A stretch of DNA of 64,000 bases from Mobula birostris (GCF_030028105.1 NC_092374.1:197589345-197653344), one strand, 5' to 3'; counted from the first letter of the stretch, positions 9,377-62,636 are shown. Notes: a model not told the origin generated them from the sequence alone. Made by a program: numbers and translations.

Positions 9377-9964
9377 TACGTCTGAGACTAACCCAATCCT
9401 GAGCTGTACATTCTAGCCCCTTGCATTTTCGGGCCAAGGGAACCTCCAACAGCAAGTCAACGCACTAATAATACCGGATATTATCCACAACCTCCACAAG
9501 TCTCCTGTATCCTGCAAGACTACATCTCACCATTGAGCCAAATTAGACTCTAAAGCTTGCCGACCCCACAGATATAAAATAAAATTGATGCTCTTCTGCC
9601 TTTTACACCATTCATAAATATACATGCTGATTTTACCTTAATTAATTATTTTCTGCACTGTCGCCAAATATCTAAGATCGCCACTCAATCGTACAATATC
9701 ATGCTGTATTCTGGCCAATCCACGGCTAAAGAAAGAAAAAGGCTCCCGGTCAGAGGTGAGGCGGAGTTCAGCGCTGTCAACCTCGATAGAAACTCACTAA
9801 AAAGTCATCGGGTAAATTTCAATCCCATCAACAAATAAAATAAATGCTTTCCATCGTAAATTGTCGTTACATAAATCTGAACAACAATATTATCCCCACA
9901 CCATATACACAGTCGAGTTTTGTTTCATAACCGACACTACATGGGTATTAGCGCTGGGAGCCGC

Positions 9965-10745
9965 AGGGACTTGCGAAAATTCTGGAAGTGGCGAGGTAGA
10001 TCTGGTGCAGAGTCTGGGAGGATTTGATTACACTGACATCGCTGCGTTACGGATAATTTATTTTAATTTGCTTATGTCACCTTCTCTTTGCAATGTACTA
10101 TACGGGGGCTGTAAAAAGATTATTTATGACATTTAAACCCTGTATATTTAAAACGCAAATCAAAAAAAAAACTTCTCGCGGAAACTTCACCATCACTTCT
10201 GTCAATCTAATAATTTTTTTAAACTTCGTGTCAAGTCCTGTTCTGGTCACAAACACCGCAAAAGTCCTTTTGTCAAAATTGAGTGTCACAAACTCTGACT
10301 TTCAGTTCTATACTTCCTTTAAGTGCTCTGTTACTAATTTCGTCCTGCAGATATTAACCAGAGCTGTCGATCCTTGTTTGCTGGCTTCGTCCCTTTAAGG
10401 CCAGAGAATTCTCTCCCCAGAAGATGCTTCAGATTTTTTCTTGCGTGCAGGGAACTTTTGGAAGAAATTGCTGGTTTCGTATATTTAAAAAGTGTTTCAA
10501 AGGGTTCCCGAATGACTCGGTTTTCAGCCGGAACCTCCCTGACTGCACCAGATCTTTCTCGCTATTACCAGAACATTCGCGAAGCCCCGGCAAGTCTCAG
10601 ACTAGCAGCGTTCTGATTGGCCGCCGCCTCGGAACCTTCTCCAACCTTCGGCGGTGAGTCACTCGCCGGCGTTTTCATTGGTTTACCGGGTCGTCCCTCA
10701 AGAACAAAGCACCGCCCACACCGCTGTGCTGGGACTATATTAAGG
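9965..10745 (+). promoter_or_regulatory. hsp70 copy 1 heat-shock promoter
   Basis: Perfect 3-unit HSEs cGAAaaTTCtgGAAg (9974-9988) and aGAAcaTTCgcGAAg (10570-10584); imperfect HSE at about 10631-10650; ATTGG at 10616 and 10677; TGAGTCA at 10655; CCGCCC at 10712; TATATTAA at 10736. Confidence 0.85.
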
Positions 10746-10845
10746 GACGGAGCAGGGGACCAGGCAGTAACGATCTGCTTGGAAAAACAAGGAATTCCTT
10801 GCGGTATTTCAATAAAGAACGTCGGAGCTTTCGTCAGAAACACAG

Positions 10846-12768
10846 ATGTCTGCATCAACGGGAACAGCTATCGGTATCGACCTGGGCACCACCTACTCCT
10901 GTGTGGGGGTCTTCCAACATGGCAAAGTGGAGATCATCGCCAATGACCAGGGCAACCGCACCACCCCCAGCTATGTGGCCTTCAACGACACCGAGAGGCT
11001 CATCGGTGATGCAGCCAAGAACCAGGTGGCAATGAACCCCGCCAACACCATCTTTGATGCCAAGCGGCTTATTGGGAGGAGGTTTGACGACCCGACGGTA
11101 CATTCTGACATGAAGCACTGGCCCTTCCAGGTGGTGAGTGATGCGGGGAAGCCAAAGGTGAAGGTGGAGTACAAGGGGGAGAACAAAACCTTTTACCCAG
11201 AGGAAATCTCCTCCATGGTGCTGACCAAGATGAAGGAAATTGCTGAGGCTTACCTTGGCTGCAGAGTCACCAACGCTGTCATCACCGTTCCTGCTTACTT
11301 CAATGATTCCCAACGCCAGGCAACCAAAGATGCTGGTGTGATAGCTGGTCTCAATGTCCTGCGTGTCATCAATGAGCCAACTGCAGCTGCCATTGCCTAT
11401 GGTCTGGACAAGAAAGGTAAAGGGGAGCGTAATGTTCTCATCTTTGACCTGGGTGGTGGCACCTTCGATGTGTCCATTCTCTCCATCGATGACGGTATCT
11501 TTGAAGTGAAATCAACAGCTGGTGATACCCACCTGGGAGGAGAGGACTTTGACAACCGCATGGTCAATCACTTCATTGAGGAGTTCAAGCGGAAATACAA
11601 GAAAGACATCAGCCAGAACAAGAGAGCGGTGAGGAGGCTGCGGACGGCCTGTGAGAGAGCAAAGAGAACGCTGTCTTCCAGCACCCAAGCCAGTATTGAG
11701 ATTGACTCTCTGTTTGAGGGTGTTGATTTCTACACCTCTATCACAAGGGCTCGCTTTGAGGAGCTGAACTCTGACCTGTTCAGGGGCACTCTGGAGCCAG
11801 TGGAGAAAGCCCTGAGAGATGCCAAGCTGGACAAATCCAAAATCCATGAAATTGTCCTGGTGGGAGGCTCCACCCGAATCCCCAAGATCCAGAAGCTGCT
11901 GCAAGATTTCTTCAACGGTAGGGAGCTGAACAAGAGCATCAACCCCGACGAGGCCGTGGCCTATGGGGCAGCTGTCCAGGCGGCCATTCTGATGGGCGAC
12001 AAGTCGGAGAATGTTCAGGATCTGCTACTCCTGGATGTTGCTGCTCTGTCATTGGGGCTGGAGACGGCAGGTGGAGTCATGACCACACTTATCAAGCGTA
12101 ACACAACCATCCCCACCAAGCAGACCCAGATTTTCAGCACCTACTCTGATAACCAGCCTGGGGTCCTTATTCAGGTGTTTGAAGGCGAGAGAGCCATGAC
12201 CAAGGACAACAACCTTCTGGGCAAGTTTGAGTTGAGTGGCATCCCTCCCGCTCCTCGTGGCGTACCCCAGATTGAGGTGACCTTCGATATTGACGCCAAT
12301 GGCATTCTCAATGTCTCTGCTGTTGACAAGAGCACCGGGAAAACAAACAAGATCACCATCACCAACGACAAGGGCAGGCTGAGTAAGGAAGAAATTGACA
12401 GGATGGTGCAAGATGCAGAGAAGTACAAGAATGAGGATGAAATGCAGCGGCAGAAGATTGCAGCCAAGAACTCTCTGGAGTCCTATGCCTTCAACATGAA
12501 GGGCTCTGTGGAGGATGAGAAGATGGCCGGAAAGATCAGTGCTGAGGACAAGAGGAAAGTCATTGACCTGTGCAACGAGACAATATCCTGGCTGGAGAAG
12601 AATCAGATGGCAGAGAAGGAGGAGTTTGAGCACAAGCAGAAAGAGCTGGAAAAACTCTGCAATCCCATCACTGCCAAACTGTACCAAGGAGCAGCCGCAG
12701 GGGAATCGTGCAGGGCACAGGCTGGGAATGCCAGTTCTGCCGGACCAACTATTGAGGAGGTGGATTAA
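10846..12768 (+). CDS. hsp70: Intronless, inducible-type cytosolic Hsp70, 640 aa (copy 1)
   Basis: [36 protein letters not shown] signatures; C-terminal GPTIEEVD; no GGMP repeats; HSE/TATA promoter. Confidence 0.98.
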
Positions 12769-13053
12769 AGGACTGTAAATGTGACTGTCTGGGGCTTGCA
12801 CAGTTTGAGCTGTCTGGACACTTCAGTGGGTCTGATGCTGATGTTGGCACTTGGGAATAGTCTTCACTGTAACACCACGGGGTCATGTCAATGTCCTGAA
12901 TCTGGCTGTGATGTATTAATTGTAAACACTGGTAACGAGTTGTATTCAATTCCTTTGATCGGGTTTTTTGTATTGGGGTATTTTATTTTTTTAAAGTCAT
13001 CTGTTTTGGAATGTAAACTTTGTACAGTTTTAAGTTTCTTGTAACATGCTTTT

Positions 13054-13059
13054 AATAAA
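13054..13059 (+). terminator. Probable hsp70 polyadenylation signal
   Basis: AATAAA about 285 nt after the stop codon, kept at the equivalent place in copies 2-5. Confidence 0.65.
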
Positions 13060-13945
13060 TCTTCTAATTTTTTAAAATTGGGTGTAATTATATTTCATCA
13101 CCAGAGAAGGAAAACTTGCCATTTTGTTTTCAAAAACATGAAGTCAACAATTTATGGGTGTTAAATTATTGATGTATATCAATGAATGTTTCCTCCTCAT
13201 CCTCCCTTTCCCAGGGATATCTTCCTTCTAATTTCCAGCACACCTTCTTTCTGGATCTCTTTTGTCAACACTTCCCCACTCTCACAGGTGCAGTTTGACA
13301 TTACTTTACCAGAAGGCTTTTGGTTCTTCAAGGTGACCAGTCCCCAATGTTGACAGATCTAGTCATGTTGCCCTTCGCCGGTAGTTCCTGCATTGTCCCC
13401 AAAAACAGCTTAATTCGCTGCCTTGGGAGAGAATCCCATATGCTGGGAACGACGATTGGTATTGGCAGCAGGCTGAGTTTTGAGGTGTGTGTTTGGACAG
13501 GTACATGGAGGGGAGGTGATTGACAGGTTGCGGGCAACTGGAACTAGCCGGGAGGATGCTGTGTGGGGCTTGGACAAGTTGGGTGGAAGGGCCTTTTCCC
13601 AGCTGTTCTCCGCACAACTGTTGACGTTTCTGTTTATCATACAGTATCAGGATGTAAAGGAACTTTAGCAGTTACAAGGTATTTTACCTAGTAATCATGT
13701 CAAACCTTGCAGAGATTTCTGTAAGCAACAGGTTATTGAGCTCCTGATTTAAATCACCTTCATACAGAGGAACAGAATGAGTCCATTCAGCCCATCGATA
13801 TTGTTTTGGCATTTGATCATTGCTGATTTATTTTCCTTCTTAATCCCATTCCCCTGCTTTCTCTCCATCCATAACCTTTGATACGCTCACTAATCAAGAA
13901 ACTATCAACCTCATCTTTAAGTGAAATTTAAATAACTTGAAATCC

Positions 13946-15412
13946 TTTCTTTTTCAATCTTTTTATTAAGTTTCAAATTAATAAACATAGCAATAATGAT
14001 ACTTAGAGATCGGGATTACATTAAAAACGGTTAACATGTATAACCACAGAATCTAAGTAATAAATGTGTAGTAACTAACCCTGAAAACAAAATTTTATAG
14101 AGAGAGAAAAAGAAAAATCCCTAAACTAAAAAAAAGCTAAACTGAAGGTTGGGCTGCCATATTTCATCGGTTAAAATTATAATTTGTCATTAACTCCACT
14201 CCTCTTTACATGGAGAAAAAAATTACTAAAAAAAAAGGATTCAGAAAGGGTCAGCTTACATCTTATGAAAATATTGAATAAATGGCCTCCAGGTTTCTTC
14301 AAATTTAACCGAAGGATCCATAGTACCGCAAGTTTAAACATGCTATCGTTTGGGAAAACCAATGAAATGGTAGTGGGGTTGGAATATTTCCATTGAAATA
14401 GAATGGATCTTCTGGCTATTAATGTACATAATGCAATTAGACGACAAGCTGATGAGGATAAATGACTGGAGTCTGTCACTGGTATTCCAAAAATTGCAGT
14501 AATAGGATGAGGTTGTAAATCAACACACAGAACTACTGACATAGTACCAAAAATATCTTTCCAATATTTTCCTAGAAGAGGGCAAGACCAGAACATATGT
14601 GTCAAGGAAGCTACTTCAGTATTACATCTATCACAAACAGGATTTATATGGCACTAAAAACGAGCTAACTTATCCTTGGACATATGAGCCCTGTGAACCA
14701 CCTTAAATCGTATCAGGGCGTGTCTGGCACACATTGAAGAAGTATTAACTAGTCGAAAAATTTTCTCCCAGTTCTCTGTAGATAAAGATATTTGAAGTTC
14801 TCTTTCCCCTCATTCTTAATTTTATCAGATGTACCTAGACGTATTTGCGTAATGAAATCATAAATAATTACTATTAAACTCTCCTAATGGGGGTTTAAAC
14901 CTAAAGATTTTTCTGTAACTTCAATTTGATGCGATATCGGAAAAATAGGTAAAGTAGCGTTCATAAGGTTTCTAATCTGTAAATATCTGAAAAACTGTGA
15001 TCTAGGCAAATTATATTTATTAGACAACTGTTCAAAAAATTTAAAACAATCATCCATGAATAAATCACGAAAACATGTTATTCCCTTTGTTTTTCCATAG
15101 AAGAAAAGCTTGATCAATTCTAGATGATTGGAAGAAAAAATTAGGTATCATTGAACTTGACAGGATAACTTTATTCAATCCAAAAAATTTACGAAATTGA
15201 ATCCATATTCGTATTGCATGTTCAATTATCGGATTTATCATTTGTTTATTCAATTTAGTAAGTTCAAAGGGAAGCGCAGCTCCGAAAATGGAAGCCAGCG
15301 AAAACCCCTGTACAGACTCCCCCTCGAGGTTCATCCATCGTGGACATCGAACTCTTGTGTCCAAAACGTTAAATATCGAATATTAATTGCCCAGTAATAA
15401 AATCTAAGATTC
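13946..15412 (-). mobile_element. L1-clade LINE, 3' end of ORF2, 5'-truncated
   Basis: NLRFYYWA, FFRYLQIR, THMFWSCP..YW on minus strand; AATAAA plus A-rich tail at the left end. Confidence 0.8.
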
Positions 15413-15506
15413 GACGTGTACTTATTTTGAGACTTGATTCCTGGATCCAGATATCAAGGGAGGAAACATCGCCTTGCGTCTAAAAGTTGTAAAAAATCCG
15501 ATGAAT

Positions 15507-15706
15507 GGTTCTTCTCCCGTGCGAGTGGGAGGGGTTGGGTGGTGGGGAGTATACCCCTCAACTACGGTTGTATTATAGAAGGTGAACGAGCAAGTGCCAC
15601 GTGAGTGACTAAAATGTTTAAACTGTTTAGAATGAATCATGAATTCAGAATTATTGAATTGGTTTATTGTAAATAATTTAGTTAAATATATTTTGCTTTT
15701 AAAAAA
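15507..15706 (+). mobile_element. Old Tx1-type 3' UTR fragment in the U1 3' flank (paralogue at about 53300-53500)
   Basis: gagtgggagggg...ggagtatacccctc...gtgccacgtg...ggtttattgta shared with the Tx1 3' end at 19324-19580. Confidence 0.55.
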
Positions 15707-16141
15707 CGACGGGATAAGGTAAGCAGCCGCCGAGACCGTTCAGCAGGGCCCCCAGCATTTATCTTATGATGCAGCACGGGATCTGCAGATTTTCTCGTGT
15801 TTGACCTTTTCTGCAGATGTGGTGTGAGTGGCTGTTTCCGGCACCTATTGTTATTTTTCTCACCTTCTTCTGTCGTTCCTTACCATCTCTTACTAAATAA
15901 GAAGTTGATGCGCAATTTGTTACAGTATAAGCACAGTATTCTTCTTTGGTTGGTTGAGAGAACGGAACGACTGAAAGGCTGAATTAATATTGTAACCTTA
16001 TAAGGTAAAGTAAGCGAGTTGTTAGATGAGTTGTCTGGAGGCACCGAGATATTCCAAATTAACCGGCGGTCGTCAATTCACGCGACATAGGGAGAAAACA
16101 CAAAACTGAACCAGAGACCCGTCTGTCTTTAAACTGAAAAT

Positions 16142-17459
16142 CAGGGGAGAGCGCGAACGCAGTCCCCCACTACCACAAATTTGGGGACATCGCAGGCGTC
16201 AGCACACCATAAGTGCAATGGGATAGCCTCGTCCTGGGAGAACCTTTTTTTCCCCAAAGATACTTTATTCAGAAGCGTTACATGAAAAAACAGTCGTTGA
16301 CTCTGAGTCCTTATTCAATAAAGTTATTAACAATAAAATTATGCGTTGACTCTGTTCATTTACAAATGAAAAATGTTTACAATAAACCATTCATTTACTC
16401 TCAATCCTTGGTCAAGGGTTAAGACTTATTAACAATAAAATTATCAACAATAAATGCAGGCGATGGCTCTAATGCTTTCCCAAATTAACAATTCCACCCA
16501 CTCCTTGGGCACCATGTTGATTATCTGTCCACACCGCTGATGAGGGTAGGTCTCCTCCCCACCCAACCCCTCCCACTCCCACATCCTTAACTTTACCCTG
16601 ACCTGCCGTTATGTCCAAACCCCCAGACTGTCGTCGACGGCCTCATGCCTCCCCACGCTCTCTACATATCGCGCTAGGAACGTGAGAACGTCGACGCCAG
16701 GCACATAGGCATTAAGCATCTGTATCGTAATTGTTCACTCCTGCGTTGCCACGGCAAAGAGAGGTTGCACTTTAAATAGCGACAGCGGCGCCTCGCTCCC
16801 TTTCTCGAAGAAGCACTGGAGCAGTCTCTGCCACCCTGCGGCACGCCGGAAGGTGACATCATAGTAACTCGGGAAATCCTGCACGCAGTACAGATCATCT
16901 ACCTTAAAGCCGCAGCAGTCGAAAAGCACCTTACGAATGAAAGTAATCCGACTGAAGCTGTTGCCATCTTTCAGATCCTTGACACTCATTCGCACGGTAT
17001 TCTTGATACCAGCTCCACGAGCGGAAGGGCTGGTCTCCCCCGACCTCCTTCTCGGTTCGCTGGACTCCCCAGCTCTCTTTCTCCATTCGCTTGACTCCGC
17101 AGCTCTCTTCTCTGATTGGCTGGACTTTCCAGAAGTCGCTGCTATGCCGGATTTTCCACTCTGCTTCATTGACGCGCTGGACGCTTCAGCTCGCATATCC
17201 GATCCCCTGCAGCCCTCCGCTCTTTCCTCTGAGTCGCTGGTCTCTGCAACACTCCCTCCACATGCGCTAGTCTTACCAGCCATCCCGTTGTTCCGGGAAA
17301 GCACGTTCAACTGCGCCGTCAGCGCGAACTCCTCTCCCAGCCGAAGATCTCCCCGTTTCGAGCACAGCAGGAACCGCTAGGTTCTTAGAAGAATGGTAGT
17401 ACGCCCTCGTCCTGGGAGCACAGCCTTAACAGTTACGGTCTCTCCCTTGCCAGATGAAT
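16142..17459 (-). pseudogene. RNU1: U1 snRNA pseudogene split by a Tx1 insertion
   Basis: U1 nt 40-164 at 16142-16244 (22-nt deletion); U1 nt 1-57 at 17405-17459 (diverged); 3' box GTTTAAAGACAGA on minus strand at 16122-16134. Confidence 0.92.
16245..17404 (-). mobile_element. Tx1-clade non-LTR retrotransposon, internally deleted (5' UTR, ORF1 N-half, 3' UTR, poly(A))
   Basis: ORF1-like NTVR..FSRITFIRKVL..GFKVDDLYCVQDFPSYYDVTF, continuing past a stop as TITIQMLNAYVP..FLARY..GVWT; AATAAA plus A-tail; 18-bp TSD (16227-16244 and 17405-17422). Confidence 0.85.
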
Positions 17460-17900
17460 GTTACCTTTCTATGCATCCGTATGCATTCTTAACCCACACC
17501 CCTCAATATTCAGGCGAACAAATCTTTTAAAGGAATAGATTTCCTACTATTCCACGTGGTCCTCTCAGAATACCGTTGCCACAAATGCCACAAATCTATT
17601 TATTTGATTAGCTTCTGTGCTTTAGTACTGATAAATCCTAGACCTTAATCTGCATGTTTTCTAAAAAAAGGAAATGTGCGCCACGATTGGTTTTGCAGTG
17701 ACTGGTCGTTGCCGAACCCGACCGCACGGTGTCAGTGTTTTCATTGAGGAAATGCAGGGAGCTGCCTGAGGCTCACAGGGTGATTGAACAGACGGCCCCG
17801 TCCCTGGCCCCGAAGACCAGGATTGCGCTGGAAAGGTTGAAGAGGAGATTAGCCAGGAAGTTGCTTGGGGTGGGGGGTCAGCTTTTCACCTATGAAGGGA
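17460..17900 (-). promoter_or_regulatory. U1 upstream region (PSE-like, SPH-like, octamer-like) of the split copy
   Basis: Collinear with the upstream regions of both intact U1 genes; TCGCCTGAATATTGAGGGG and ATGCAGAT on minus strand. Confidence 0.7.
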
Positions 17901-18399
17901 GATTAAACACAGGACAGCACAGGAGCTGATCTTTCGACTCAAAATGCCTGTGCACAGACATCCCACCCTGCAAAAGCACCCCCGCCCCCCGCAACCCCAT
18001 ATCTCCCTCCCCCCGGTCGACCTACAAGGGTGTATGTAATACTTTGTTTTAGTGATTTTGTCTAATCTGTAAACCAAGATGGATATATGCAGAAATATGA
18101 CATTAATATATGTCCTTATATTATCATGTTTATTCTATTACAATTTTAAGCAAGTCTACAGGGAGTTTTGCCTCATCACGTAGGACATCAACAGAGTAGC
18201 TCCTTAGCAGCTAGACAGCTAATTTAAATAATGTTAGCTATGCTAATGAACGAATGACACCTGTTAAACTCACCTGAACTTGTCTTTTACATTTTAACCC
18301 ACCATGGGCAATAGAAAAGTCACTGTTGCAAACAGTGCAGCGAGCAATACTGTCATTCTTTTTGAGGTCGACTGTAAAGCCCGCTCACAGAGAAAACTG

Positions 18400-19323
18400 A
18401 TCTGGCCCAAGGGAACCTCCAGCAGCGGGTCAACATATTAGGGCAATATCACTAATATAGACATCATCCATAACCTCCACAAGTCTTCTGTATGCTCCAG
18501 GACTACATCTCAGCATTGAGCCAAATTAAACACTAAAGCTTTCCGACACCACAGCCATGAAATTGTTATAAAATAAAATTAATGCTCTGGCTGATTAATC
18601 TCAGCTGGCTTTTAACCATTCATAAATGTACATGCTGATTTCACCTTAATTAATTACTTTCCGCACTGTCGCCAAATATCTAAGATCGCACAATATCATG
18701 CTGTATTCTGGCCAATCCACGGCTAAAGAAAGAAAAAGGCTCCCGGTCAGAGGTGAGGCGGAGTTCAGCGCTGTCAACCTCGATAGAAACTCACTAAAAA
18801 GTCATCGGGTAAATTTCAATCCCATTAACAAATAGAATAAATGTTTTCCATCGTAAATTGTCGTTACATAAATCTGAAAAACAGTATTATCCCCACACCA
18901 CATACACACTTGATGTTTGTTTCATAACCGACACTACACGGGGAGTATCGCTGAGAGCCCGCAAGCCGCTGGGACTTTGCGAAAATTCTGGAGGTGGCGA
19001 GGTAGATCTGGTGCAGAGTCTGGGAGAATCTGACAACACTAACATCGCTGCGTTACGGATAATTTATTTTAACGTGTTTAAGTCACCTTCCCTTAGCAAG
19101 GGCTGCAAAAGGAGTAATAATAACATGTGAACCTGTATATCTATACCAAAACAAAAAAAAACTTCTCGCGCAAACTTCACCATCAGTTCTGCCAATCTGA
19201 TAATATTTTTTAAACTCCACGTCACGTCCTGTTATGGTCACAAATACTGCAAAAGTCCTTTTGTCAAAATTTAATGTCATAAACTCTGACTTTCAGTTCT
19301 ATGCTTCCTTTAAGTGCTCTGTA
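18400..19323 (+). promoter_or_regulatory. Distal hsp70 upstream region of copy 2 (core promoter missing)
   Basis: Collinear with about 9430-10331, including the distal HSE module; stops at aagtgctctgt. Confidence 0.75.
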
Positions 19324-19580
19324 TTATTTTTATTTCAAAATATACCTTATTCAAAAATAAATGTATACAATAAACCATTCAGTAACTTTCCATCCTTTAC
19401 ATACGTTTCCATTATAGTCAGTACATATCCGTATTTATAGCCACCCACGTGGCACTCCAGTAGTTCAGCTTACCACATCATTGTCGAGGGGTATACTCCC
19501 CGCCCCCCGACCCTTCCCACTCCCAAGGGTGGAGAAACCTATACCGTGGTCCTTCCCCACCGGGCCCTTGCGGTGGCTGA
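19324..19580 (-). mobile_element. Tx1-type 3' end (ORF2 C-terminus, 3' UTR, A-rich tail)
   Basis: Minus strand ends ATARARWGRTTV-stop, then a UTR shared with other Tx1 ends in the window. Confidence 0.75.
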
Positions 19581-19582
19581 GT

Positions 19583-20824
19583 TGGAGATACCCACCTGAG
19601 AGGAGAGGGCTTTGACAACCGCATGGTCAATCACTTCATTGAGGAGTTCAAGCGGAAATACAAGAAAGACATCAGCCACAACAAGAGAGCGGTGAGGAGG
19701 CTGCGGACGGCCTGTGACAGAGCAAAGAGAATGCTGTCTTCCAGCCAGTATTGAGATTGACTCTCTGTTTGAGGGTGTTGATTTCTACACCTCAATCACC
19801 AGGGCTCGCTTTGAGGAGCTGAACTCTGACCTGTTCAGGGGCACTCTGGAGCCAGTGGAGAAAGCCCTGACAGATGCCAAGCTGGACAAATCCCAGATCC
19901 ATGAAATTGTCCTGGTCGGAGGCTCCACCCGAATCCCCAAGATCCAGAAGCTGCTGCAAGATTTCTTCAATGGTAGGGAGCTGAACAAGAGCATCAACCC
20001 CGATGAGGCCGTGGCCTATGGGGCAGCTGTCCAGGCAGCCATTCTGATGGGCGACAAGTCGGAGAATGTTCAGGATCTGCTACTCCTGGATGTTGCTGCT
20101 CTGTCATTGGGGCTGGAGACGGCAGGTGGAGTCAAGACCACCCTTATCAAGCGTAACACCACCATCCCCACCAAGCAGACCCAGATCTTCAGCACCTACT
20201 CTGATAACCAGCCTGGGGTCCTTATTCAGGTGTTTGAAGGCGAGAGAGCCATGACCAAGGACAACAACCTTCTGGGCAAGTTTGAGTTGAGTGGCAATCC
20301 CTCCCGCTCTTCGTGGCGTACCCCAGATTGAGGTGACCTTCGATATTGACGCCAATGGCATTCTCAATGTCTCTGCTGTTGACAAGACCACCGGGAGAAC
20401 AAACAAGATCACCATCACCCACGACAAGGGCAGGCTGAGTAAGGAGGAAATTGACAGGATGGTGCAAGATGCAGAGAAGTACAAGAATGAGGATGAAATG
20501 CAGCGGCAGAAGATTGCAGCCAAGAAATCCCTGGAGTCCTATGCCTTCAACATGAAGGGCTCTGTGGAGGATGAGAAGATGGCCGGAAAGATCAGTGCTG
20601 AGGACAAGAGGAAGGTCATTGACCTGTGCAACGAGACAATATCCTGGCTGGAGAAGAATCAGATGGCAGAGAAGGAGGAGTTTGAGCACAAGCAGAAAGA
20701 GCTGGAAAAACTCTGCAATCCCATCATTGCCAAACTGTACCAAGGAGCAGCAGCAGGGGAATCGTGCAGGGCACAGGCTGGGAATGCCAGTTCTGCTGGA
20801 CCAACTATTGAGGAGGTGGATTAA
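19583..20824 (+). pseudogene. hsp70: hsp70 pseudogene (copy 2): 5' third missing, two frameshifts
   Basis: Starts at the GDTHL codons (about codon 226); 8-bp deletion near 19744; +1 insertion near 20297; ends GPTIEEVD. Confidence 0.95.
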
Positions 20825-21327: not shown

Positions 21328-22488
21328 CATAGTCATAGTCATAGTCATACTTTATTGGTCCCGGAGGAAATTGGTTTTCGTTACAGTTGCACCATAAATA
21401 ATAAATAGTAATAAAACACCATAAATAATAAGTAGTAATAAAACCATAAATAGTTAAATAGTAATATGTAAATTATGCCAGGAAATAAGTCCAGGACTAG
21501 CCTATTGGCTCATGGTGTCTGAAACTCCAAGGGAGGAGCTGTAAAGTTTGATGGCCACAGGCAGGAATGACTTCCTGTGACGCTCTGTGTTGCATCTCGG
21601 TGGAATGAGTCTTTGGCTGAATGTACTCCTGTGCCCAACCAGTACATTATGTACTGGATGGGAGACATTGTCCAAGATGGCATGCAACCTGGACAGCATC
21701 CTCTTCTCAGACACCACCGTCAGAGAGTCCAGTTCCATCCCCACAACATCACTGGCCTTACGAACGAGTTTGTTGATTCTGTTGGTGTCTGCTACCCTCA
21801 GCCTGCTGCCCCAGCACACAACAGCAAACATGATAGCACTGGCCACCACAGACTCGTAGAACATCCTCAGCTTCGTCCGGCAGATGTTAAAGGACCTCAG
21901 TCTCCTCAGTAAATAGAGACGGCTCTGACCCTTCTTGTAGACAGCCTCAGTGTTCTTTGACCAGTCCAGTTTATTGTCAATTCGTATCCCCAGGTATTTG
22001 TAATCCTGCACCATGTCCACACTGACCCCCTGGATGGAAACAGGGGTCCGTACCTTAGTGCTCCTCAGGTCTACCACCAGCTCCATAATCTTTTTCACAT
22101 TAAACTGCAGATAATTCTGCTCACACCATGTGACAAAGTTTCCTACCGTGGCCGTGTACTCAGCCTCATCTCCCTTGCTGATGCATCCAACTATGACAGA
22201 GTCATCTGAAAACTTCTGAAGATTACAAGACTCTGTGCAGTAGTTGAAGTCCGAGGTGTAAATGGTGAAGAGAAAGGGAGAAAAGACAGTCCCCTGTGGA
22301 GCCCCAGTGCTGCTGATCACTCTGTCAGACACACAGTGTTGCAAGCACATGTACTGTGGTCTGCCAGTCAGGTAATCAAGAATCCATGACACCAGGAAAG
22401 CAACCACCTGCATCGCTGTCAGCTTCTCCCCCAGCAGAGCAGGTTGATTGTGTTGAACGCACTGGAGAAGTCAAAAACCATGACTCTT
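21328..22488 (-). mobile_element. Rex1-clade LINE, 5'-truncated (RT ORF 21502-22413)
   Basis: GAPQGTV, YTSDF..QKFSDD, KKGQSRLY.LRRL, FLPVAIKL; (catagt)n tail; empty site ctcacaggtgcagttt present in copy 1. Confidence 0.88.
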
Positions 22489-23914
22489 GGTGCAGTTTGG
22501 CATTACTTTACCAGAAGGCTTTTGACAGGAGATTCGGCATTGTCACCAAAAACGGCTTAATTAGCTGCCTTGGGAGAGAATCCCATATACTGGGAACGAT
22601 TAGTATTGGCAGCAGGCTCAGTTTTGAGGTGTGTATTTGGACAGGTACATGGAGGGGAGGTGATTGACAGGTTGCGGGCAACTGGAACGAGCCGGGAGGA
22701 TGCTGTTGTGGGGCTTGGACAAGTTGGGTGGAAGGGCCTTTTCCCAGCTGCTCTCCGCACAACTGTTGGCGTTTCTGTGGAAATGCAGGGAGCTGCCTCA
22801 GGCCGACAGGGTGAATGAACAGGCGCCCCCGTCCCCGGCCCCGCAGACCGGGATTGCGCTGAGGCTGAAGGGGAGATTAGCCAGGATGTTGCAGGGCTGT
22901 TAGTTTTTCACTTATGAGTGGAGACTGAACAGACCAGCAGGGTTTTCGGCCCAAAATGCCTGTACACAACGTTATGCCAAATAAAATTATATCCCTTCTG
23001 CCTCCACACGATCCCTATCTCTTCATACCCGGTCATGTTCTTATTTAAAACGCTCTTAAACTGCACCGTATCTGCTTCCACCACCACGACAAGCAGCTCG
23101 TTCCCGGGAAACCCACCAGCCTCTGGGTGAAAGAAAATCGCCTTTAAACTAACTCCATCATCATAGAAATGCAAGTATTTGATATTTCTATTCGGAGTAA
23201 AACTCTTAATCTTTTCTATAAGTGTTTCTCATCAATTTTAAAGCTGTTCGGTTTTGCCTCCATCCCCCGACAACTGAGAGAAATCTAGTGACGGGTCAGG
23301 TTAGATTTGTTTTCTTTGGTGATCATAAATGGGAGAGAGAGAGGCCCAGGTAGCGTGGACAGGGTCATTGTTTACCCAGTGGACAGTCGAGTTCAAACCA
23401 GAGTTTAGGAACGAGGGTTAGTGGGACCTGAGAATGAACTTCATCTTCAAAGTTCAAAGTAAAATTTATTATTAGCAATTCAGGAACAGCTTCTTCCCCA
23501 CTGCAATCAGTGTTCATGGGATCAATGACCATTCAGAAATCAGACCCACCATGAATACTGCTCATATATATATATAAATTTGTTTTGTACTAGTTTTAAT
23601 GTATTAAATGCACATATATGTAGACTTACTGTAATTGATCTACTTACGTATTTATTTTCTATATTGAATTGCAAGGTATTGCATTGAACTGCTGCTGCTA
23701 AGTTAACAGATTTCACAACACATACCTGTGATAATATCTCTCACTGCTCCCCATCTGCAATTTCTTCGGCTCTTCAACTTTTCCACCACATGTTGACTCA
23801 GACTTGCAGGTCTTGGCTCCATCCATCCCCCTCCTGTCTTCTCCTATCGTTTTGGAACTCCCCCTCCCCCTCCCCCTCTCACTTTCAAATCTCTTACTAA
23901 CTCTTCCTTCAGTT

Positions 23915-29724: not shown

Positions 29725-29774
29725 GTTTCATAACCGACACTACACGGGGAGTATCGCTGAGAGCCCGCAAGCCG

Positions 29775-48919: not shown

Positions 48920-49834
48920 AATATTTTGAAGATATATTTCCTACTTTTAGGAACGAACCTCCTAGAATACCGTTACCACAAATGCCCTAAATCTAGATTA
49001 TTTGATTAGCTGCTGTAGTTTAGTGCTGACAATTCCAAGACCTTAATCTGCATTTTTTCCAAAAAAGGAAATGTGCGCCACGATTGGTTTTGCAGCGACT
49101 GGTCGTTGCCGAACCCGACCGCACGGTGCCAGTGTTTTCCTTGAGGAAATGCAGGGAGCTGCCTGAGGCCCACAGGGTGAATGAACGGGCGGCCCCGTCC
49201 CCGGCCCCACAGACCGGGATTGCGTTGAGGCTGAAGGGGAGATTAGCCAGGATGTTGCAGGGCTGTTAGCTTTTTACTTATGAGTGGAGACTGAACAGAC
49301 CAGCAGGGTTTCGGCCCAAAATGCCTGTACACAACGTTATGCCAAATAAAATTAAATCCCTTCGGCCGCCGCACGATCCTTATCTCTTCATACCCGGCAA
49401 GTTCTTATTTAAAACTGCACCATATCTGCTTCCACCACCACGCCATGCAGCTCCCTGATCATAAACTAACTCCCTCATCATAAAAATGCAAGTATTTGAT
49501 ATTTCTATTCGGAGAAAATCTCTTAATTTCACATGTTTCCCTCTCCATCCCTCTCTGCCTTCCGCAGGGATCGGTCCCTCCGTGAATCCCTGATCCACAC
49601 GTCCCTCCCCACGGATCTCCCACCCGGCACTTATCCCTGTAAGCACAAGTGTTAGCTTTTCACTTATGAAGGGAGAGTGAACACAGGACAACACACGAGC
49701 AGGTTTTTCGGCCGAAAATGCCTGTACACAACGTTATGCCAAATAAAATTATATCCCTTCTGCCTCCACACGATCCCTATCTCTTCATACCCGGTCATGT
49801 TCTTATTTAAAACGCTCTTAAACTGCACCGTATC

Positions 49835-50350
49835 TGTCCATACATGGCCTCCTCTACCGCCATGATGAGGCTAAACTCAGGTTGGAGGAGCAACACCTCA
49901 TATACCGTCTAGGTAGTCTCCAGCCCCTTTATATGACCATTGAATTCTCCAACTTCTGGTAATTCCCTTCCTCTATCCCTATTTCACTCTCCCCCCCCCC
50001 CCCCAGCTGCCTATCACCTCCCTCTTGGTTCCGCCTCCTTCTATTACCCATTGTGTTTTCCCCTATTCCTTCTTCACCTTTTTTGCCTATCACCACCCTG
50101 CTTCCCCTCCCCCACCCCTTTATCTTTCCCCTTACTGGTTTTTCACCTGGAACCTACTAGCCTTCTCCTTCCCACCCTCCCCCCACCTTCCTTATAGGGC
50201 CTCTGCCCCTTCCCCCTTCAGTCCTGACGAAGGGTTCCGGCCCGAAACGTTGACTGATCGTTTCCACGGATGCTGCCCGACCTGCTGAGTTCCTCCAGCG
50301 TGTTGTGAGTGTTGCTTTGACCCCAGCATCTGCAGAGTATTTTGTGTTCT
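49835..50350 (+). mobile_element. Penelope-like 3' fragment
   Basis: IHGLLYRHDEAKLRLEEQHLIYRLGSLQP; pyrimidine-rich tract; hammerhead tail. Confidence 0.75.
50218..50257 (+). ncRNA. Minimal hammerhead ribozyme motif
   Basis: tcagtc-CTGACGA-agggttccggccc-GAAA-cgtt-gactga; 6-bp stem I. Confidence 0.65.
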
Positions 50351-51309
50351 TAATTTCATCTATACGTGTTTCTCATCAATTTTCAAGCTACTGTATTGGG
50401 TTTTGCCTTCATCCCCGGACAATTGGCAGAAATCCAGGGATGGGTCAGGTTAGATTTGTTTTCTTTGGGGAGGGTAAAGGTGATCATAACTGGGAGAGAG
50501 AGGCCCAGGTAGCGTGGACAGGGTCATTGTTTACCCAGTGGACAGCTGAGTTCAAACCAGAGTTTAGGAACGAGGGTTAGTGGGGCCTGAGAGTGAACTT
50601 CATCTCCCAGAGGGTGGTTGGAATCTGGAAACGTTCAAAGTTCAAAGTAAAATTTATTATCAGCAATTCAGGAACAGCTTCTTCCCCACTGCCATCTGAT
50701 CTGTAAATGGTCATGGAACCCATGAACACTACACCATTTATATATATAATTTCTGTTTTGCACTATTTTTGAACTATTAAATACATATATATAGACTTAC
50801 TGTAATTGATTTACCTATGTATTTATTTTCTATATTATGTATTGCATTGAACTGCCGCTACTAAGTTAACGAATTTCACAACACTTACCTGTGATAATAA
50901 ACCTGATTCTGATTCTAATTCTAATTTTCCATTCAAAGGCATTGGTGTTCCCATATCAGGCCATGATGCATACTCAACACACTTCCCACTACACATCTAT
51001 AGAAGTTTGTCAAGGTTTTTGATAACAAGACAAATCTCTGCGGACTCCTAAGGAAGTAGAAACTTTCTTTACAATTAGATTTATATGAAAGGTCCAGGGC
51101 AGGTCCTCTGAGATCGTGGAGACAGGGGCTGTCACAACATCTAGCATTTGAATTGGGGGAAACATTTTGTTCAGCACCTCAACTCAACGTTCCCCCTAAT
51201 TTGTAATGACCAGTGTGAGCAAAGACTTGTACTGCACAACGACAACATGTGCGCACTGAATTTTTACGTGGAAGTAAATCTGAAGTCATCCTAAGGATAA
51301 TAAATGACT

Positions 51310-51581
51310 TGAAGGGCTCTGTGTAGGATGAGAAGATGGCTGGGAAGATCAGTGCTGAGGACAAGAGGAAAGTCATTGACCTGTGCAATGAAACAATATC
51401 CTGGCTGGAGAAGAATCAGATGGCAGAGAAGGAGGAGTTTGAGCACAAGCAGAAAGAGCTGGAAGAACTCAGCAATCCCATCATTGCTAAACTGTACCAA
51501 GGAGCAGCCACAGGGGAATCGTGCAGGGCACAGGCTGGGACTGCCAGTTCTGCCGGACCAGCTATTGAGGAGGTGGATTAA
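51310..51581 (+). pseudogene. hsp70: hsp70 3' fragment (copy 5) fused to a truncated hAT end
   Basis: Begins tgaagggctctgtgtag (GAG to TAG); encodes [10 protein letters not shown]...GPAIEEVD; full 3' UTR follows. Confidence 0.93.
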
Positions 51582-53705
51582 AGGACTGTAAATGTGACTG
51601 TCTGGGGCTTGCACGGTTTGAGCTCTCTCGACACTTCAGTGGGTCTGATGCTGATGTTGGCACTTGGGAATAGTCTTCACTGTAACACCACGGGGTCATG
51701 TCAATGTCCTGAATCTGGCTGTGATGTACTAATTGTTAGCACTGATAACTGGGTCTATTCAATTCCTTTAATCTGGTTTTCTGTATTGGGTTGCTTTATT
51801 TTTTTTTAATGTCATCTGTTTTGGAATGTAAACTTTGTACAGTTTTAGTTATCTTGTAACATGTTTTTAATAAATCTTTAAATTTTTTAAAAATTGGGTG
51901 TAATTATATTTCATCATCAGAGAAAGAAAACTTGCCATTTTGTTGTATCACTGTATCTCAATAAATGTTCCCTCCTCTTCCTCCCTTTCCTAGGGAGATC
52001 TTCCTTCTAATTTCCAGCACACCTTCTTTCTGGATCTCTTTTGTCAACACTTCCCCACTCTCACAGCTGCAGTTTGGCATTACTTTACCAGAAGGCTTTT
52101 GGTTCTTCAAGAAGGTGACCAGTCCCCAAAGTTGACAGATCTAGTGATGTTGCCCTTCGCCAGTAGCTCCTGCATTGTCCCCAAAAACAGCTTAATTCGC
52201 TGCCTTGGGAGAGAATCCCATATGCTGGGAACGACGATTGGTATTGGCAGCAGGCTGAGTTTTGAGGTGTGGGTTTGGACAGGTACATGGAGGGGAGGTG
52301 ATTGACAGGTTGCGGGCAACTGGGACTAGCCGGGAGGATGCTGTGTGGGGCTTGGACAAGTTGGGTGGAAGGGCCATTTCCCAGCTGCTCTCCGCACAAT
52401 TGTTGGCGTTTCTGTGCATCACCAACATCGTATCATGTCAGGATGTAAAGGAACTTTATCAGCCAAGGACAACCTGCAGCAGGTCTTCAAGGCACTGGAG
52501 TGATACCACCAACTCTAGATACACTTTATTTATACCACCGATATATGTTGTGAATTTTTTGTTTTGTGGCAGCAGAACATTGCAATACATTATAATTTTT
52601 AAAACTTTGTATAAAATACGATAAGAAATACATATAAAATAAATGAAATAATTATTGCAGAATGGCAGCAAAATATTGTGAGTTAGTGGGCTTGAGGTCA
52701 GAATTCTGATGGCAGGGAGGAAGAAGTTGTTCCTGAAAAGTTGGGTGTGTGTCTTCTGGCTCCTGTACCTCTTCCTTGAAAGTCAGGCAGTATCTATGTT
52801 GGGAAATGAACAGTGGACCAACAGCAGACTGTAAGCAGAAACTCATCAAATCCACTGGCAACAAGTATCCTGCTCATGGACTTTATCTCTTGGCCCGAGG
52901 ACCAAGTTAAACTATTTTACCACAGTGAGATATTCCTGCATCAACGCCGTGTTGATTGGCGCCTGTGGTATTTAAAACTGTCTCCCTTAGATAGTGAACT
53001 TCCTCTGCCCTCCACAATAGAACGTGGAGGATTGAATACGGGGTGGAAAAAATACTCCAAGGGACAAAAGATGCTATGATCGGCACCAACATACGTTAAG
53101 TGCCGGCTGAAGTCATCATCTGCAGAGGGAAACGGACAGTCGACGTTTCGGATTAGACAGACCCTTGATCTGGAGTTTTCAACTCTGTCCCGAAGGAGTT
53201 GTAATCTTGAGATTATGATTCCTGGATGTGGATATTAAGGGAGGAAATATCGCCTTGGGTCTGAAAGTTGGAAAAAATATCCGATGAATGTTTCTTTCGG
53301 GTTCTTCTCCGCTGCGAGTGGGAGTGGTTGGGTGGCGCGGAATAAACCCCTCAACTACGGTTGTGTTATAGAAGATGAAGTAGCAGAGTGCCACGTGAGT
53401 GAGTAAAATTTGAAAACTGTACAGAATGAAATAGTCATGAATTCAGAGTTATTGAATGGTTTGTCGTAAATAATTTTCTCAAGTGTATTTTGTTTGGAGA
53501 AAACGGATGGGAGAAGGTAAGTCGCCGCCGAGACCCATCAGCAGGGCCCCCAGTATTTTTGTAACCTTACAAGGGAGTGGGTCTGGAAGCAGCGAGACGT
53601 ACGAAGTGAACCATCGGTTGTCAATACACGCACTGAGTACGGGAAGACTGTACACAACTTGCAGAAAACTCTTAACAGGGGAATCTCTGTCTTTAGATTA
53701 GAAAT

Positions 53706-53869
53706 CAGGGGAGAGCGCGAACGCAGTCCCCCACTACCACAAATTTTGCAGTCGAGTATCCCGCATTTGGGGACATCGCAGGCGTCAGCACACCCGAAGT
53801 GCAATGGGATAGCCTCGTCCTGGGAGAACCGCCTTAATGATCACGGTCTCTCCCCTGCCAGGTAAGTAT
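53706..53869 (-). ncRNA. RNU1: U1 spliceosomal snRNA, intact, 164 nt
   Basis: Minus strand ATACTTACCTGGCAGGGGAGA...ATTGCAC...AATTTGTGGTAGTGGGGGACTGCGTTCGCGCTCTCCCCTG; 3'-box-like TCTAAAGACAGA. Confidence 0.97.
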
Positions 53870-54290
53870 GCTTTTTCTTCTCTGCCATCCACGTGCATGC
53901 TTAACCCACACCCCTCAATATTCAGGCAAACAAATGTTCTAAAGATCTATTTCCTACTATTCCACGTGCTCCTCCTAAAATACTGTTAGCATAAATGCCA
54001 CAAATCTAGATTATTTGATTAACTGCTGTAGTTTACTGGTGACAAATCCCAGACCTTAATCTGCATGTTTTCTAAAAAAGGAAATGTGCGCCACGATTGG
54101 CTTTGCAGCGACTGGTCGTTGCTGAACCTGACCGCACGGTGTCAGTGTTTTCCTTGAGGAAATGCAGGGAGCTGCCTGAGGCCCACGGGGTGAATGAACA
54201 GACGACCCCGCAGACCGGGATTGCTCTAGAAAGGCTGCAGGGGAGATTAGCCAGGATGTCGCAGGGGGGTCAGCTTTTCACTTATGATGG
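53870..54290 (-). promoter_or_regulatory. U1 promoter
   Basis: PSE-like TTGCCTGAATATTGAGGGG at about -42 to -60 (53911-53929); octamer variant ATGCAGAT at about -190 (54059-54066). Confidence 0.65.
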
Positions 54291-54380
54291 GAGACTGAAC
54301 ACAGGACAGCACACGAACGGATCTTTCGGCTCAAAATGCCTGTGCACAGACATCTCACCCTGCAAAAAACGCTCACCCCC

Positions 54381-54870
54381 TTGTTATATGCTTTGAATAA
54401 GTCTTTTACTTCTTAAATTGGCTGTAACTTTATTTCAATATCAGGGCAGATGGGCATGAAAATTTGCCCTTTTGCTTTTAGCACTTCAAAGTCATCAATT
54501 TATGGGTGTTAAAGTATATAACTGAATGACCCTTCCTCATCCTCCCTTTCCCAGTGTTATCTTCTTTCCAATTTCCACCACACCATGTTTTTGGATCTGA
54601 TTTGTTAACACCTCACTGTCATCACAGGTTAAGCATGGGATTACTCTGTTGCAAGGCCTGTGATCCTTCAAGAATGTGACCAATCCTCAAGATGGACAGA
54701 TGAGTAATGTTGGTCTTCGCCAGCAGCTCCAGCATTGTCCTCCAAAATGTATAACTAGCTGCCTTGGGGGAGAATCTGGCAATGACAATTGGTAGTAACA
54801 GCAGTAGAACCTCAGCACATACTGTGTACTTGGTCCCCAAACATTTGCCTCAACCTGCAAAATAAGCTTC
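54381..54870 (+). repeat. Diverged sixth copy of the hsp70 3' UTR end and 3' flank, without CDS
   Basis: ttgttatatgctttgaataagtc...aagtcatcaatttatgggtgttaaa...cctcatcctccctttcccag...gctgccttgggggagaatc aligns with about 13039-13436. Confidence 0.75.
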
Positions 54871-60516: not shown

Positions 60517-61866
60517 TGTAACGGTCTTTTGGAGGTCACCTGATGTGATTTTCCCGCCGATGTGAGGTCACGTGATGACATGTGCCGCCCGCCCCCCCCC
60601 GTGACTATATAAGGGTCGACCCGGGTGACGTAGTAGGTGTTTGAGTTTGTAGATTTTCAGGTGGAATGGGTTGTGCCTCCGTTTCTGTTGCGTTTGTTTT
60701 TGTGACGCAGTTTCATTTATAAAACGGTTGTACGTTCTGTTGAAAGATTCCATATTACTTGGACTGGGAATTTGTGGCTGGAAGTGCCAATTTACTCAAT
60801 TCCGACAGTTTTGAAGGGAGAGTAAAGAATTCGTCGAAGTGAAGGAGCGAGAGAAGTCGGTATCGTTTGGCAGTTTGATAAAGGATAGACCTTATTGAGT
60901 TTTCATTGAAGAGAAGCTGCATTGAGATAACTCTTGTAAAAGCGCAATAAGTTCATGCAAAAAGGCTCTCTCTCTAAAAGGAACTTAAGGTCAGTTGATT
61001 TAAACTGTTTATTTTCGGTTAATTCCACATCCCATTCCCATTCTGACATATCGATCCACGGCCTCCTCTACTGTAAAGATGAAGCCACACTCAGGTTGGA
61101 GGAACAACACTTTATATTCCGTCTGGGTAGCCTCCAACCTGATGGCATGAACATCGACTTCTCTAACTTCCGCTAAGGCCCCCTCGTACCCCATCTGTTA
61201 CTTATTTTTATACACACATTCTTTCTCTCACTCTCCTTTTTCTCCCTCTGTCCCTCTGACTATACCCCTTGCCCATCCTCCCTTGTCTTTCTTCCCGGAC
61301 CTCCTGTCCCATGATCCTCTCGTATCCCTTTTGCCAATCACCTGTCCAGCTCTTGGCTCCATCCCTCCCCCTCCTGTCTTCTCCTATCATTTTGGATCTC
61401 CCCCTCCCCCTCCCACTTTAAAATCCCTTACTCACTCTTCCTTCAGTTAGTCCTGACGAAGGGTCTCGGCCTGAAACGTCGACTGTACCTCTTCCGACAG
61501 ATGCTGATTGGCCTGCTGCATTCACCAGCAACTTTTATGTGTGTTGTTTACTTTCGGCATCGGGAATCCTGTGGACGGAACCAGAAGTAAAGGTGTGTCG
61601 GCGAAGAAATAGTTCTCTAGATAAGTCTCCCAATTGAACGTGTAAATCCTGTTGGACTTTGGAAGTTATCGCTTTAAGAACTGTTTTCAGCATTTAACGC
61701 TTTAAGAACCAGAGCTGAGTGGCGAGCTGGTGAACAACTGCGTACCTGTTACTCTCCGGTTAAAGTTTTCCTTTTTTTTCTTATCGTTTATACGTGTTTA
61801 ATAAATGTTCGGTTGTTTTTATAAAACCTGTCTCGATTAATATTCATTGTTGCCGGTTACGTAACA
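60517..61866 (+). mobile_element. Solo LTR with nested Penelope-like fragment (about 61019-61545)
   Basis: TGTAAC...GTAACA termini, TATATAA near 60606, AATAAA at 61800; nested insert flanked by tgttta(t/c)tttcgg; no TSD around the LTR. Confidence 0.7.
61449..61484 (+). ncRNA. Minimal hammerhead ribozyme motif with GUC cleavage triplet
   Basis: agtc-CTGACGA-agggtctcggcct-GAAA-cGTC-gact. Confidence 0.7.
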
Positions 61867-62070
61867 CTCTTTAACCCTTTCCCGTCACCCAGTTTTCAGG
61901 CTGCAGAATGATGTCGAAATCATCCTGTTCCATCTCCAAGTCCTGAACGCCGATTGCTAGGATCCGTAGCTGTATTATGCACGTCTTGGTGTACCGAGGT
62001 CCTACCGACGGCTGTACAGCAACCAACTCACTCTACCTCGCAAATTTCAGTTTCTATCTTTATTGAAGAT

Positions 62071-62234
62071 CAGGGGAGAGCGCGAACGCAGTCCCCCACT
62101 ACCACAAATTTTGCAGTCGAGTATCCCGCATTTGGGGACATCGCAGGCGTCAGCACACCCAAAGTGCAATGGGATAGCCTCGTCCTGGGAGAACCGCCTT
62201 AATGATCACGGTCTCTCCCCTGCCAGGTAAGTAT
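62071..62234 (-). ncRNA. RNU1: U1 spliceosomal snRNA, intact, 164 nt
   Basis: One visible difference from the 53706 copy (ACTTTGGG vs ACTTCGGG next to loop II). Confidence 0.97.
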
Positions 62235-62636
62235 GCTTTCTTTTCTTTGCCATCTGCATGCATGCTTAACCCACACCCCTCAAATTTAAGGCAACCAAAT
62301 CTTTTAAATACCTATTTCCCACTTTTACATGTGCTCCTCCTAGAATACCGTTACCACAAATGCCACAAATTTAGAGTATTTGATTAGCTTCTGTAGTTAT
62401 TGCTGGCAATTCGCATACCTTAATCTGCATGTTTGCTAAAAAAGGAAATGTGCGCCACGATTGGCTTTGCAGCGACTGGTCGTTGCCCAACCCGACCGCA
62501 CGGTGTCAGTGTTTTCATTGAGGAAATGCAGGGAGCTGCCTGAGGCCCACAGGGTGAATGAACAGGCGGCCCCGCAGACCGGGATTGCGCTGGAAAGGGT
62601 GTAGGGGAGATTAGCCAGGATGTTGCAGGGGGTTAG
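62235..62636 (-). promoter_or_regulatory. U1 promoter
   Basis: PSE-like TTGCCTTAAATTTGAGGGG, SPH-like taccacaaatgccacaa, ATGCAGAT; collinear with the other U1 upstream copies. Confidence 0.65.

Follow-up and report, generated by a model that had tools for sequence, protein, structure and literature searches.

A tandem array of linked hsp70 and U1 snRNA genes in Mobula birostris, probably shaped by passive co-duplication and decay

The stretch of DNA analysed here is a 64,000-nt window of the Mobula birostris genome (GCF_030028105.1 NC_092374.1:197589345-197653344), which covers a single part of an array and supplies all of our DNA evidence. It carries an intronless hsp70 gene on the plus strand and a convergent U1 small nuclear RNA (snRNA) gene on the minus strand, which together make up one block; five to six copies of it follow each other head-to-tail, most of them broken, as seen by self-comparison, a list of open reading frames (ORFs), Rfam and targeted searches. 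Of the hsp70 ORFs in the window three are intact, as are two of the U1 genes, and no block among the six has both genes intact. The array is irregular, given that successive hsp70 stop codons are spaced by 8.1, 11.8, 13.7 and 5.3 kb. An original prediction, made from the sequence alone, had proposed a recurring order of hsp70 (+), shared 3' flank, U1 (-) and U1 promoter. Self-comparison of the dot-plot type confirmed this map, all of its coordinates were recovered, and the Rfam search for U1 that it suggested returned two full-length genes and one partial match. Its statement that no unit keeps both genes holds for this window only. No transfer RNA genes and no Rfam families other than U1 were detected in the window.

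The hsp70-derived features are the following.

8892-10845, plus strand: block 1 hsp70 upstream region and promoter, with heat-shock elements at 9974, 10565-10584 and 10631-10650 and a TATA-like box at about 10737
10846-12768, plus strand: block 1 hsp70, an intact single ORF of 640 amino acids with an EEVD end (PF00012, 876 bits)
12769-13673, plus strand: block 1 hsp70 3' untranslated region (UTR) and shared 3' flank, AATAAA at about 13055
18402-19322, plus strand: block 2 hsp70 distal upstream region, distal heat-shock element retained at about 18980
19580-20824, plus strand: block 2 hsp70 pseudogene, beginning at about codon 225, with an 8-bp deletion and a 1-bp insertion
27254-30654, plus strand: block 3 hsp70 upstream region and promoter, perfect heat-shock elements at 29781 and 30379
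30655-32577, plus strand: block 3 hsp70, intact ORF of 640 amino acids, four changes at near-invariant positions
44322-46244, plus strand: block 4 hsp70, intact ORF of 640 amino acids, three synonymous differences from block 3, promoter elements at 43448 and 44046
51307-51581, plus strand: block 5 hsp70 3' fragment, final 91 codons with in-frame stop, promoter and 5' part deleted
51582-53705, unstranded: block 5 interval from hsp70 stop to U1 3' end, 2.1 kb, the least interrupted copy
54380-54804, plus strand: flank remnant of an old hsp70 3' end (block 6), 75-77% identity to blocks 1, 2, 3 and 5

With an HSP70 domain, a single coding exon, a C-terminal EEVD and heat-shock elements in the promoter, the hsp70 copies appear to be of the cytosolic, stress-inducible, intronless type, and heat inducibility is predicted. 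Between blocks 1 and 3, 14 codon differences change an amino acid and 27 are silent, over 1486 and 434 sites, respectively, a ratio of about 0.15. At positions that are at least 90% conserved among 69 proteins, block 1 shows no change and the block 3/4 gene shows four; the first base of the block 3/4 TATA-like box is also altered, and these copies may be starting to decay. Just 5' of their distal heat-shock element, the upstream regions of blocks 3 and 4 contain a repeat-rich insertion of 1.1 kb (28641-29724 and 42308-43391). Clustering at 90% places the window hsp70 proteins with those of Mobula, Hypanus and Hemitrygon, the Mobula proteins being the closest.

The U1-derived features are listed below; PSE denotes the proximal sequence element.

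15417-16141, unstranded: block 1 U1 downstream flank, 77% identity to block 5, with a shared old Tx1-type 3' end and 3' box
16142-16246, minus strand: block 1 U1 3' part, nt 39-164, two substitutions in 103 positions and a 22-nt deletion
17404-17462, minus strand: block 1 U1 5' part, nt 1-57, 11 substitutions in 57 positions, splice-site-binding end destroyed
17462-17975, minus strand: block 1 U1 promoter, PSE-like, octamer-like (-193) and CCAAT (-228) motifs
22778-24391, unstranded: block 2 distal U1-upstream piece and a spacer shared by blocks 2, 3 and 4, with U1, PSE and enhancer deleted
35409-35830, minus strand: block 3 orphan U1 upstream region, enhancer retained, PSE cut
48914-49333, minus strand: block 4 orphan U1 upstream region, a copy of the block 3 region
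53706-53869, minus strand: block 5 U1 snRNA gene, intact, Rfam RF00003 157.9 bits
53870-54367, minus strand: block 5 U1 promoter, PSE-like at -61, octamer-like at -197, CCAAT at -231
62071-62234, minus strand: block 6 U1 snRNA gene, intact, Rfam RF00003 157.8 bits, one difference from block 5
62235-62680, minus strand: block 6 U1 promoter; weak spacer homology resumes at 62907-63057

Both intact U1 genes cover positions 1-166 of the RF00003 model (gathering score 69.5), while the split U1 of block 1 lies below the gathering score, with a partial match at 16142-16266 of 54 bits; the 5' piece of this gene lies at 17405-17453. The intact pair differs at one of 164 positions (99.4% identity); the aligned upstream-plus-gene regions are 88% identical, and the promoters differ by about 10% outside the enhancer core. 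PSE-like motifs at -60/-61, octamer-like motifs at -196/-197, a CCAAT motif and a 3' box-like motif 8-10 nt downstream accompany both genes; these assignments follow standard consensus motifs, except that the PSE pattern was derived from these same sequences. Being full length, with the U1 5' end, an Sm site and an snRNA-type promoter, the two surviving genes are predicted to be transcribed. Their minimum-energy fold is stable (z -3.2) and differs from the known cloverleaf, and the fold is left out of the argument. The first loop of both genes (53837-53842 and 62202-62207, minus strand) reads GAUCAUUAAG, where the Rfam consensus is GAUCAaGAAG.

U1 upstream DNA is present six times in the window, at 17468-17974, 22776-22969, 35406-35829, 48911-49334, 53870-54366 and 62236-62677, the second of these, in block 2, being the distal piece only. 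In blocks 3 and 4, U1 itself is deleted, as the original prediction had described, and the upstream regions are left as orphans; with the PSE cut, an orphan promoter making antisense RNA was ruled out. The distal U1-upstream region also forms local tandem repeats of about 0.39 kb (35759-36862 and 49264-49836), with one more copy in block 3 than in block 4. Two weak 34-bp matches to U1 upstream DNA at 2010 and 3685 were discarded, being located inside retroelement-like repeats and absent from the nhmmer results. The loosest and weakest block is the sixth: 7.2 kb separate its 3' flank remnant from its U1, the only window matches in between are pieces of interspersed repeats, and the downstream flank of its U1 aligns to those of blocks 1 and 5 at only 41-47%.

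The evidence that the two genes were copied together comes from informative sites in blocks 1, 2, 3 and 5 (block 4, nearly identical to block 3, and block 6, in which most segments are missing, were left out). All nine informative sites of the distal hsp70 3' flank split the blocks into 1+5 versus 2+3, as do all 13 in the distal U1 upstream region. Given that the splits on both sides are identical, hsp70 and U1 were duplicated together in one repeat unit, which bears out the earlier claim of a linked cassette amplified as one unit. Blocks 2, 3 and 4 further share deletions flanking the U1 position on both sides, as well as a derived marker at one site:

21328-22488, 33095-34225 and 46762-47890, minus strand: piece of a reverse-transcriptase retroelement in blocks 2, 3 and 4, respectively

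The flanks are 5-25% diverged between blocks, with the exception of the pair 3/4, and amplification was therefore not recent; the cassette had rightly been called old. The coding end of hsp70 tells another story: its last 275 nt split the blocks into 1+2 versus 3+5 at eight of eight sites, and the proximal 3' UTR gives mixed splits (5, 3 and 1 sites). Because the ORF end splits differently from the flanks, we infer crossing-over or conversion within the hsp70 gene, through which coding ends would have been reshuffled between neighbours. Two close differences between blocks 3 and 4 at 46052-46055, where block 4 has the bases of blocks 1 and 2, could mark a short conversion tract.

An alignment of blocks 3 and 4 over 10.8 kb shows 18 substitutions (0.17%) without any indel, and the pair straddles an assembly gap:

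35093-35105, unstranded: 13-N assembly gap, with a 149-bp exact overlap of its two sides

Since the pair is near-identical and lies astride this gap, we treat it as one event, which is very probably a real and recent duplication. The alternative is that assembly set two alleles in tandem. Such a small difference with a 13-N gap inside would fit this, and passages of one study describe 13-N gaps as the signature of optical-map scaffolding, in which contig ends that overlap, and are usually allelic, become duplicated (PMC7649008). However, the exact overlap at the gap amounts to just 149 bp, and to the right of the gap the tail of the block occurs twice (35106-36305 and 48611-49813, 99.6% identity). 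The spacer between blocks 3 and 4 is also distinct, with 22 substitutions and four indels in 1.37 kb relative to the block 2 spacer, and at position 34962 both sides of the gap have T where block 4 has C. We consider the allelic explanation unlikely; it would mean one block fewer and would leave the main reading of the array unaffected.

How genes were lost is partly visible at the junctions, several of which hold retroelement sequence.

13674-15416, minus strand: AT-rich insertion in block 1, in place of about 0.7 kb of block 5-type flank, no Pfam match
16245-17404, minus strand: Tx1-type retroelement of 1.16 kb, in sense orientation inside block 1 U1, with 5' UTR, ORF1 piece (16735-17283), 3' tail and poly(A)
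19323-19579, minus strand: Tx1-type 3' fragment of 257 bp replacing about 1.2 kb of block 2, hsp70 proximal promoter and first 224 codons gone
35287-35414, minus strand: Tx1-type 3' fragment of 128 bp replacing about 0.9 kb of block 3, with U1, most of the PSE and the 3' flank gone
48792-48919, minus strand: Tx1-type 3' fragment, block 4 counterpart with the same junction as block 3

The AT-rich insertion is, presumably, similar to an L1-type 3' end. The 3' fragments at the two independent deletions of about 1 kb belong to one family (90% identity), and each deletion removed part of a gene. From their position, we infer that Tx1-type insertion caused the deletions in block 2 and in blocks 3/4. 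Block 2 lost its U1, PSE and enhancer through a separate deletion, and no Tx1-type fragment was found at the hsp70 deletion junctions of blocks 5 and 6.

The element inside the block 1 U1 carries a Tx1-type ORF1 domain (PF23057, E 2e-14) that is 69% identical to residues 53-296 of a zinc-knuckle ORF1-like ray protein, with three relatives among 2149 candidates. Its target duplication of about 19 bp corresponds to U1 nt 39-57. It is internally deleted, with ORF1 homology stopping at 16585 and the 3' tail coming next, and no endonuclease/reverse transcriptase ORF2 is present in this 1.16-kb copy. It thus combines traits of snRNA-targeting elements (a Tx1-type ORF1, poly(A) and a target duplication in an snRNA gene), as a single copy in the window. 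The interrupted gene retains an intact-looking promoter and a 3' box. Its 5' part is far more diverged than its 3' part (11/57 versus 2/103 substitutions; Fisher p = 0.0002), and the stretch from -45 to +57 exceeds the non-core promoter in divergence (19/98 versus 19/208, p = 0.015). The element may carry a U1 head or target U1. The 5' piece may have come with it, in the manner of such a head; alternatively, a working U1 may have converted the 3' part and so renewed it. A simple RNA head would not account for the changes upstream of +1. U1-derived heads are described for the crocodilian elements Tx1-2_Crp, Tx1-2B_Crp and Tx1-4_AMi, and Keno targets U2 genes, according to the portions of PMC4494074 available to us. 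On the same source, the ray element resembles these in its ORF1, poly(A), target duplication and sense orientation in an snRNA gene behind a diverged U1 5' piece, whereas it differs from Keno in being one internally deleted copy and in residing in U1 instead of U2.

Two further repeats lie outside the blocks. At 797-4162 there are two tandem copies of a reverse-transcriptase retroelement, 1.7 kb each and 87.5% identical, and at 6708-7797 inverted repeats of about 190 bp (77% identity) flank a decayed stretch resembling a DNA transposon, which ends at a 164-N gap.

The original prediction spoke of reciprocal gene loss. As a description this is true; as a pattern it amounts to no more than chance, since zero overlap of three intact hsp70 and two intact U1 genes among six blocks has a probability of 0.2, or 0.3 when blocks 3 and 4 are counted once (five independent blocks). 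We have therefore dropped it as a significant pattern. These values also bear on the idea that selection favoured reciprocal loss. Stress induces transcriptional read-through past poly(A) sites, and the convergent layout places the U1 3' end 2.1 kb (block 5) or 3.4 kb (block 1) from the hsp70 stop; heat-induced read-through into U1 at this distance of 2-3 kb could disfavour blocks with both genes, of which there is none in the window. However, in addition to the chance probability of the loss pattern, block 2 lost both genes. Moreover, the block could amplify only with both genes present, so intact pairs must once have been tolerated. Selection against read-through is accordingly the least probable of the explanations we weighed, and a very improbable one.

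Co-regulation of the two genes, the other possibility raised by the original prediction, finds no counterpart in their promoters. We scanned for three-unit heat-shock elements with at most one mismatch, using 300 dinucleotide shuffles per promoter as control. Of the 38 sites recovered, six are perfect and all of these lie upstream of hsp70. The promoters of the three intact hsp70 genes contain 5, 4 and 4 sites (shuffle mean of about 0.5; equalled in 1, 4 and 0 of 300 shuffles), while the four U1 promoters scanned contain 0, 1, 0 and 0, the lone site being in the block 3 orphan promoter (20/300 shuffles). The two intact U1 genes have no heat-shock element in either promoter or downstream flank, and the nearest perfect elements are 9.8 and 18.2 kb from their starts. 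In human cells, U1 transcription is repressed by heat shock, as reported in passages of PMC9098121. We predict that the two genes are driven separately, hsp70 by heat-shock elements in its own promoter and U1 by its own PSE plus enhancer.

Could the linkage nevertheless be old and kept by selection? Heat-shock factor might act on U1, or an always-active U1 enhancer might keep the next hsp70 promoter open. The same passages report that the U1-type protection of transcripts is disturbed in heat-shocked human cells (PMC9098121), and several observations from the array likewise weigh against a purely passive linkage. At the compact, head-to-head junction of blocks 1 and 2, the U1 start and the distal heat-shock element of the next hsp70 are 1.5 kb apart. 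Blocks 1, 3 and 4 still have the U1 enhancer core although none of them has a working U1, and the core of block 1, whose U1 is dead, looks constrained (3/120 block-specific changes versus 19/208 in non-core sequence, p = 0.02, one of four tests and uncorrected). The block has also persisted long enough for its flanks to diverge by 5-25%, and passivity is itself an inference from the DNA of one partial array. On the other hand, the window contains no intact hsp70-U1 pair. Nothing matching a U1 promoter was found in the 8.9 kb 5' of the intact block 1 hsp70, a stretch that includes the 164-N gap, and the block 3 hsp70 is preceded only by an enhancer-less U1-upstream piece. The enhancer-core test is weak, given that the block 3 orphan shows no detectable constraint (5/120 versus 14/205, p = 0.46) and the two working U1 promoters reach p = 0.054 at best. 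Recent death of the block 1 U1 explains the conservation of its core, though the core may also have a second role. We regard linkage kept by selection as improbable. A bolder version holds that the pair is ancient in the shark and ray cluster, with the U1 enhancer and the head-to-head heat-shock elements forming one regulatory unit that ties spliceosome supply or open chromatin to heat shock and with the enhancer kept after U1 death; this, too, we judge improbable. If it were true, with the pair conserved across cartilaginous fishes and responsive to heat, it would offer a natural genetic handle on a U1 supply tied to the heat-shock response.

We therefore favour, as the likely explanation, a real hsp70-U1 tandem array that arose by passive co-duplication and has undergone birth-and-death decay rather than being maintained by joint regulation. 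An intronless hsp70 and its neighbouring convergent U1 would have been copied as one tandem block, most likely by unequal crossing-over, with U1 a likely passenger in hsp70 duplication and copy turnover in an old shark-and-ray hsp70 cluster as the putative driver. With both genes redundant, any copy could go: retroelement insertion with deletion of about 1 kb would have cost block 2 its hsp70 promoter and blocks 3/4 their U1, an insertion would have split the block 1 U1, and plain deletions could account for the remaining losses. Exchange between neighbours would then have reshuffled the hsp70 coding ends.

Data from other species are in line with an old cluster. A single contig carries three to eight hsp70 proteins in each of 12 species of sharks and rays (two Mobula species, Hypanus, Hemitrygon, Pristis, Leucoraja, Amblyraja, Rhinoraja, Heptranchias, Heterodontus, Carcharodon and Chiloscyllium), although a shared contig is no proof of adjacency. 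Proteins on one contig are often near-consecutive in accession number, and Leucoraja has six on a contig of 382 kb. In a tree of 69 of 174 proteins, comprising most cartilaginous-fish sequences and four bony-fish outgroups, copies mostly group by lineage, and one divergent paralogue is common to Mobula, Hypanus, Hemitrygon and Pristis (support 0.97). The shared contigs and the tree together indicate that multi-copy hsp70 is old and widespread in sharks and rays. The divergent paralogue, P0154, is common to five rays with its relatives P0034, P0152, P0153 and P0035, and the flank remnant at 54380-54804 (76%) may derive from this lineage. Four further distinct hsp70 proteins (P0002, P0016, P0021 and P0154) are assigned to what appears to be the contig of the window proteins; therefore, the cluster probably extends past the window, and the array outside it may hold intact pairs.

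One protein, P0027, is filed as Kangiella spongicola DnaK and groups with Pristis hsp70 in the tree, probably reflecting contamination by ray DNA; no ray-like contig of this type was among the 80 prokaryote-assembly hsp70 loci returned. Searches of prokaryote and metagenome sequence have no bearing on rays. Among 80 prokaryote and at least 80 metagenome hsp70 loci (17 of 64 parts scanned), 0/160 matched U1 or the cassette flanks, and none of the 160 is a ray, because the best identity to the hsp70 ORF is only 79.6%. Rfam found two transfer RNAs and no U1 on 14 of the 15 metagenome loci (of 80) that reach 4 kb, and a 21-base U1-enhancer pattern gave no stretches in metagenome contigs.

The array is a clear example of two multigene families, unrelated to each other, that turn over within a single tandem block, and gene losses in it are visibly due in part to retroelement-linked deletions. 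Its main use will be in annotating hsp70 and U1 copy number in rays. No published hsp70-U1 array was found in openly licensed PubMed Central papers and bioRxiv, supplements excluded (PMC3123226 has hsp70 and U1 terms in its reference list only), and no study of shark or ray hsp70 clusters of this kind appears by title among the matches listed. While the pairing itself was not found in print, it is a variant of known linked multigene arrays. In fish, linked repeat units include U1-U2 snRNA genes (snDNA) and, in Solea, 5S ribosomal DNA with U1, U2 and U5, as excerpts of PMC4696792 describe. Similar to these, the ray array has U1 in a repeat unit with a second gene family and contains complete and incomplete copies; in contrast to them, the partner is a protein-coding stress gene, and the array is small, irregular and mostly broken, with 0/6 blocks keeping both genes intact (PMC4696792). 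Mammalian HSPA1A/HSPA1B provide a precedent for crossing-over or conversion within hsp70 (PMC5865164), and human HSPA6/HSPA7 form an hsp70 cluster with a broken neighbour beside an intact copy (PMC2266713), in each case going by portions of the source. The ray cluster shares with them adjoining single-exon hsp70 genes, purifying selection, sequence exchange and a broken beside an intact copy, a likeness of organisation only, whereas those portions mention no U1 and copies in the ray cluster are more numerous and turn over faster (PMC5865164, PMC2266713).

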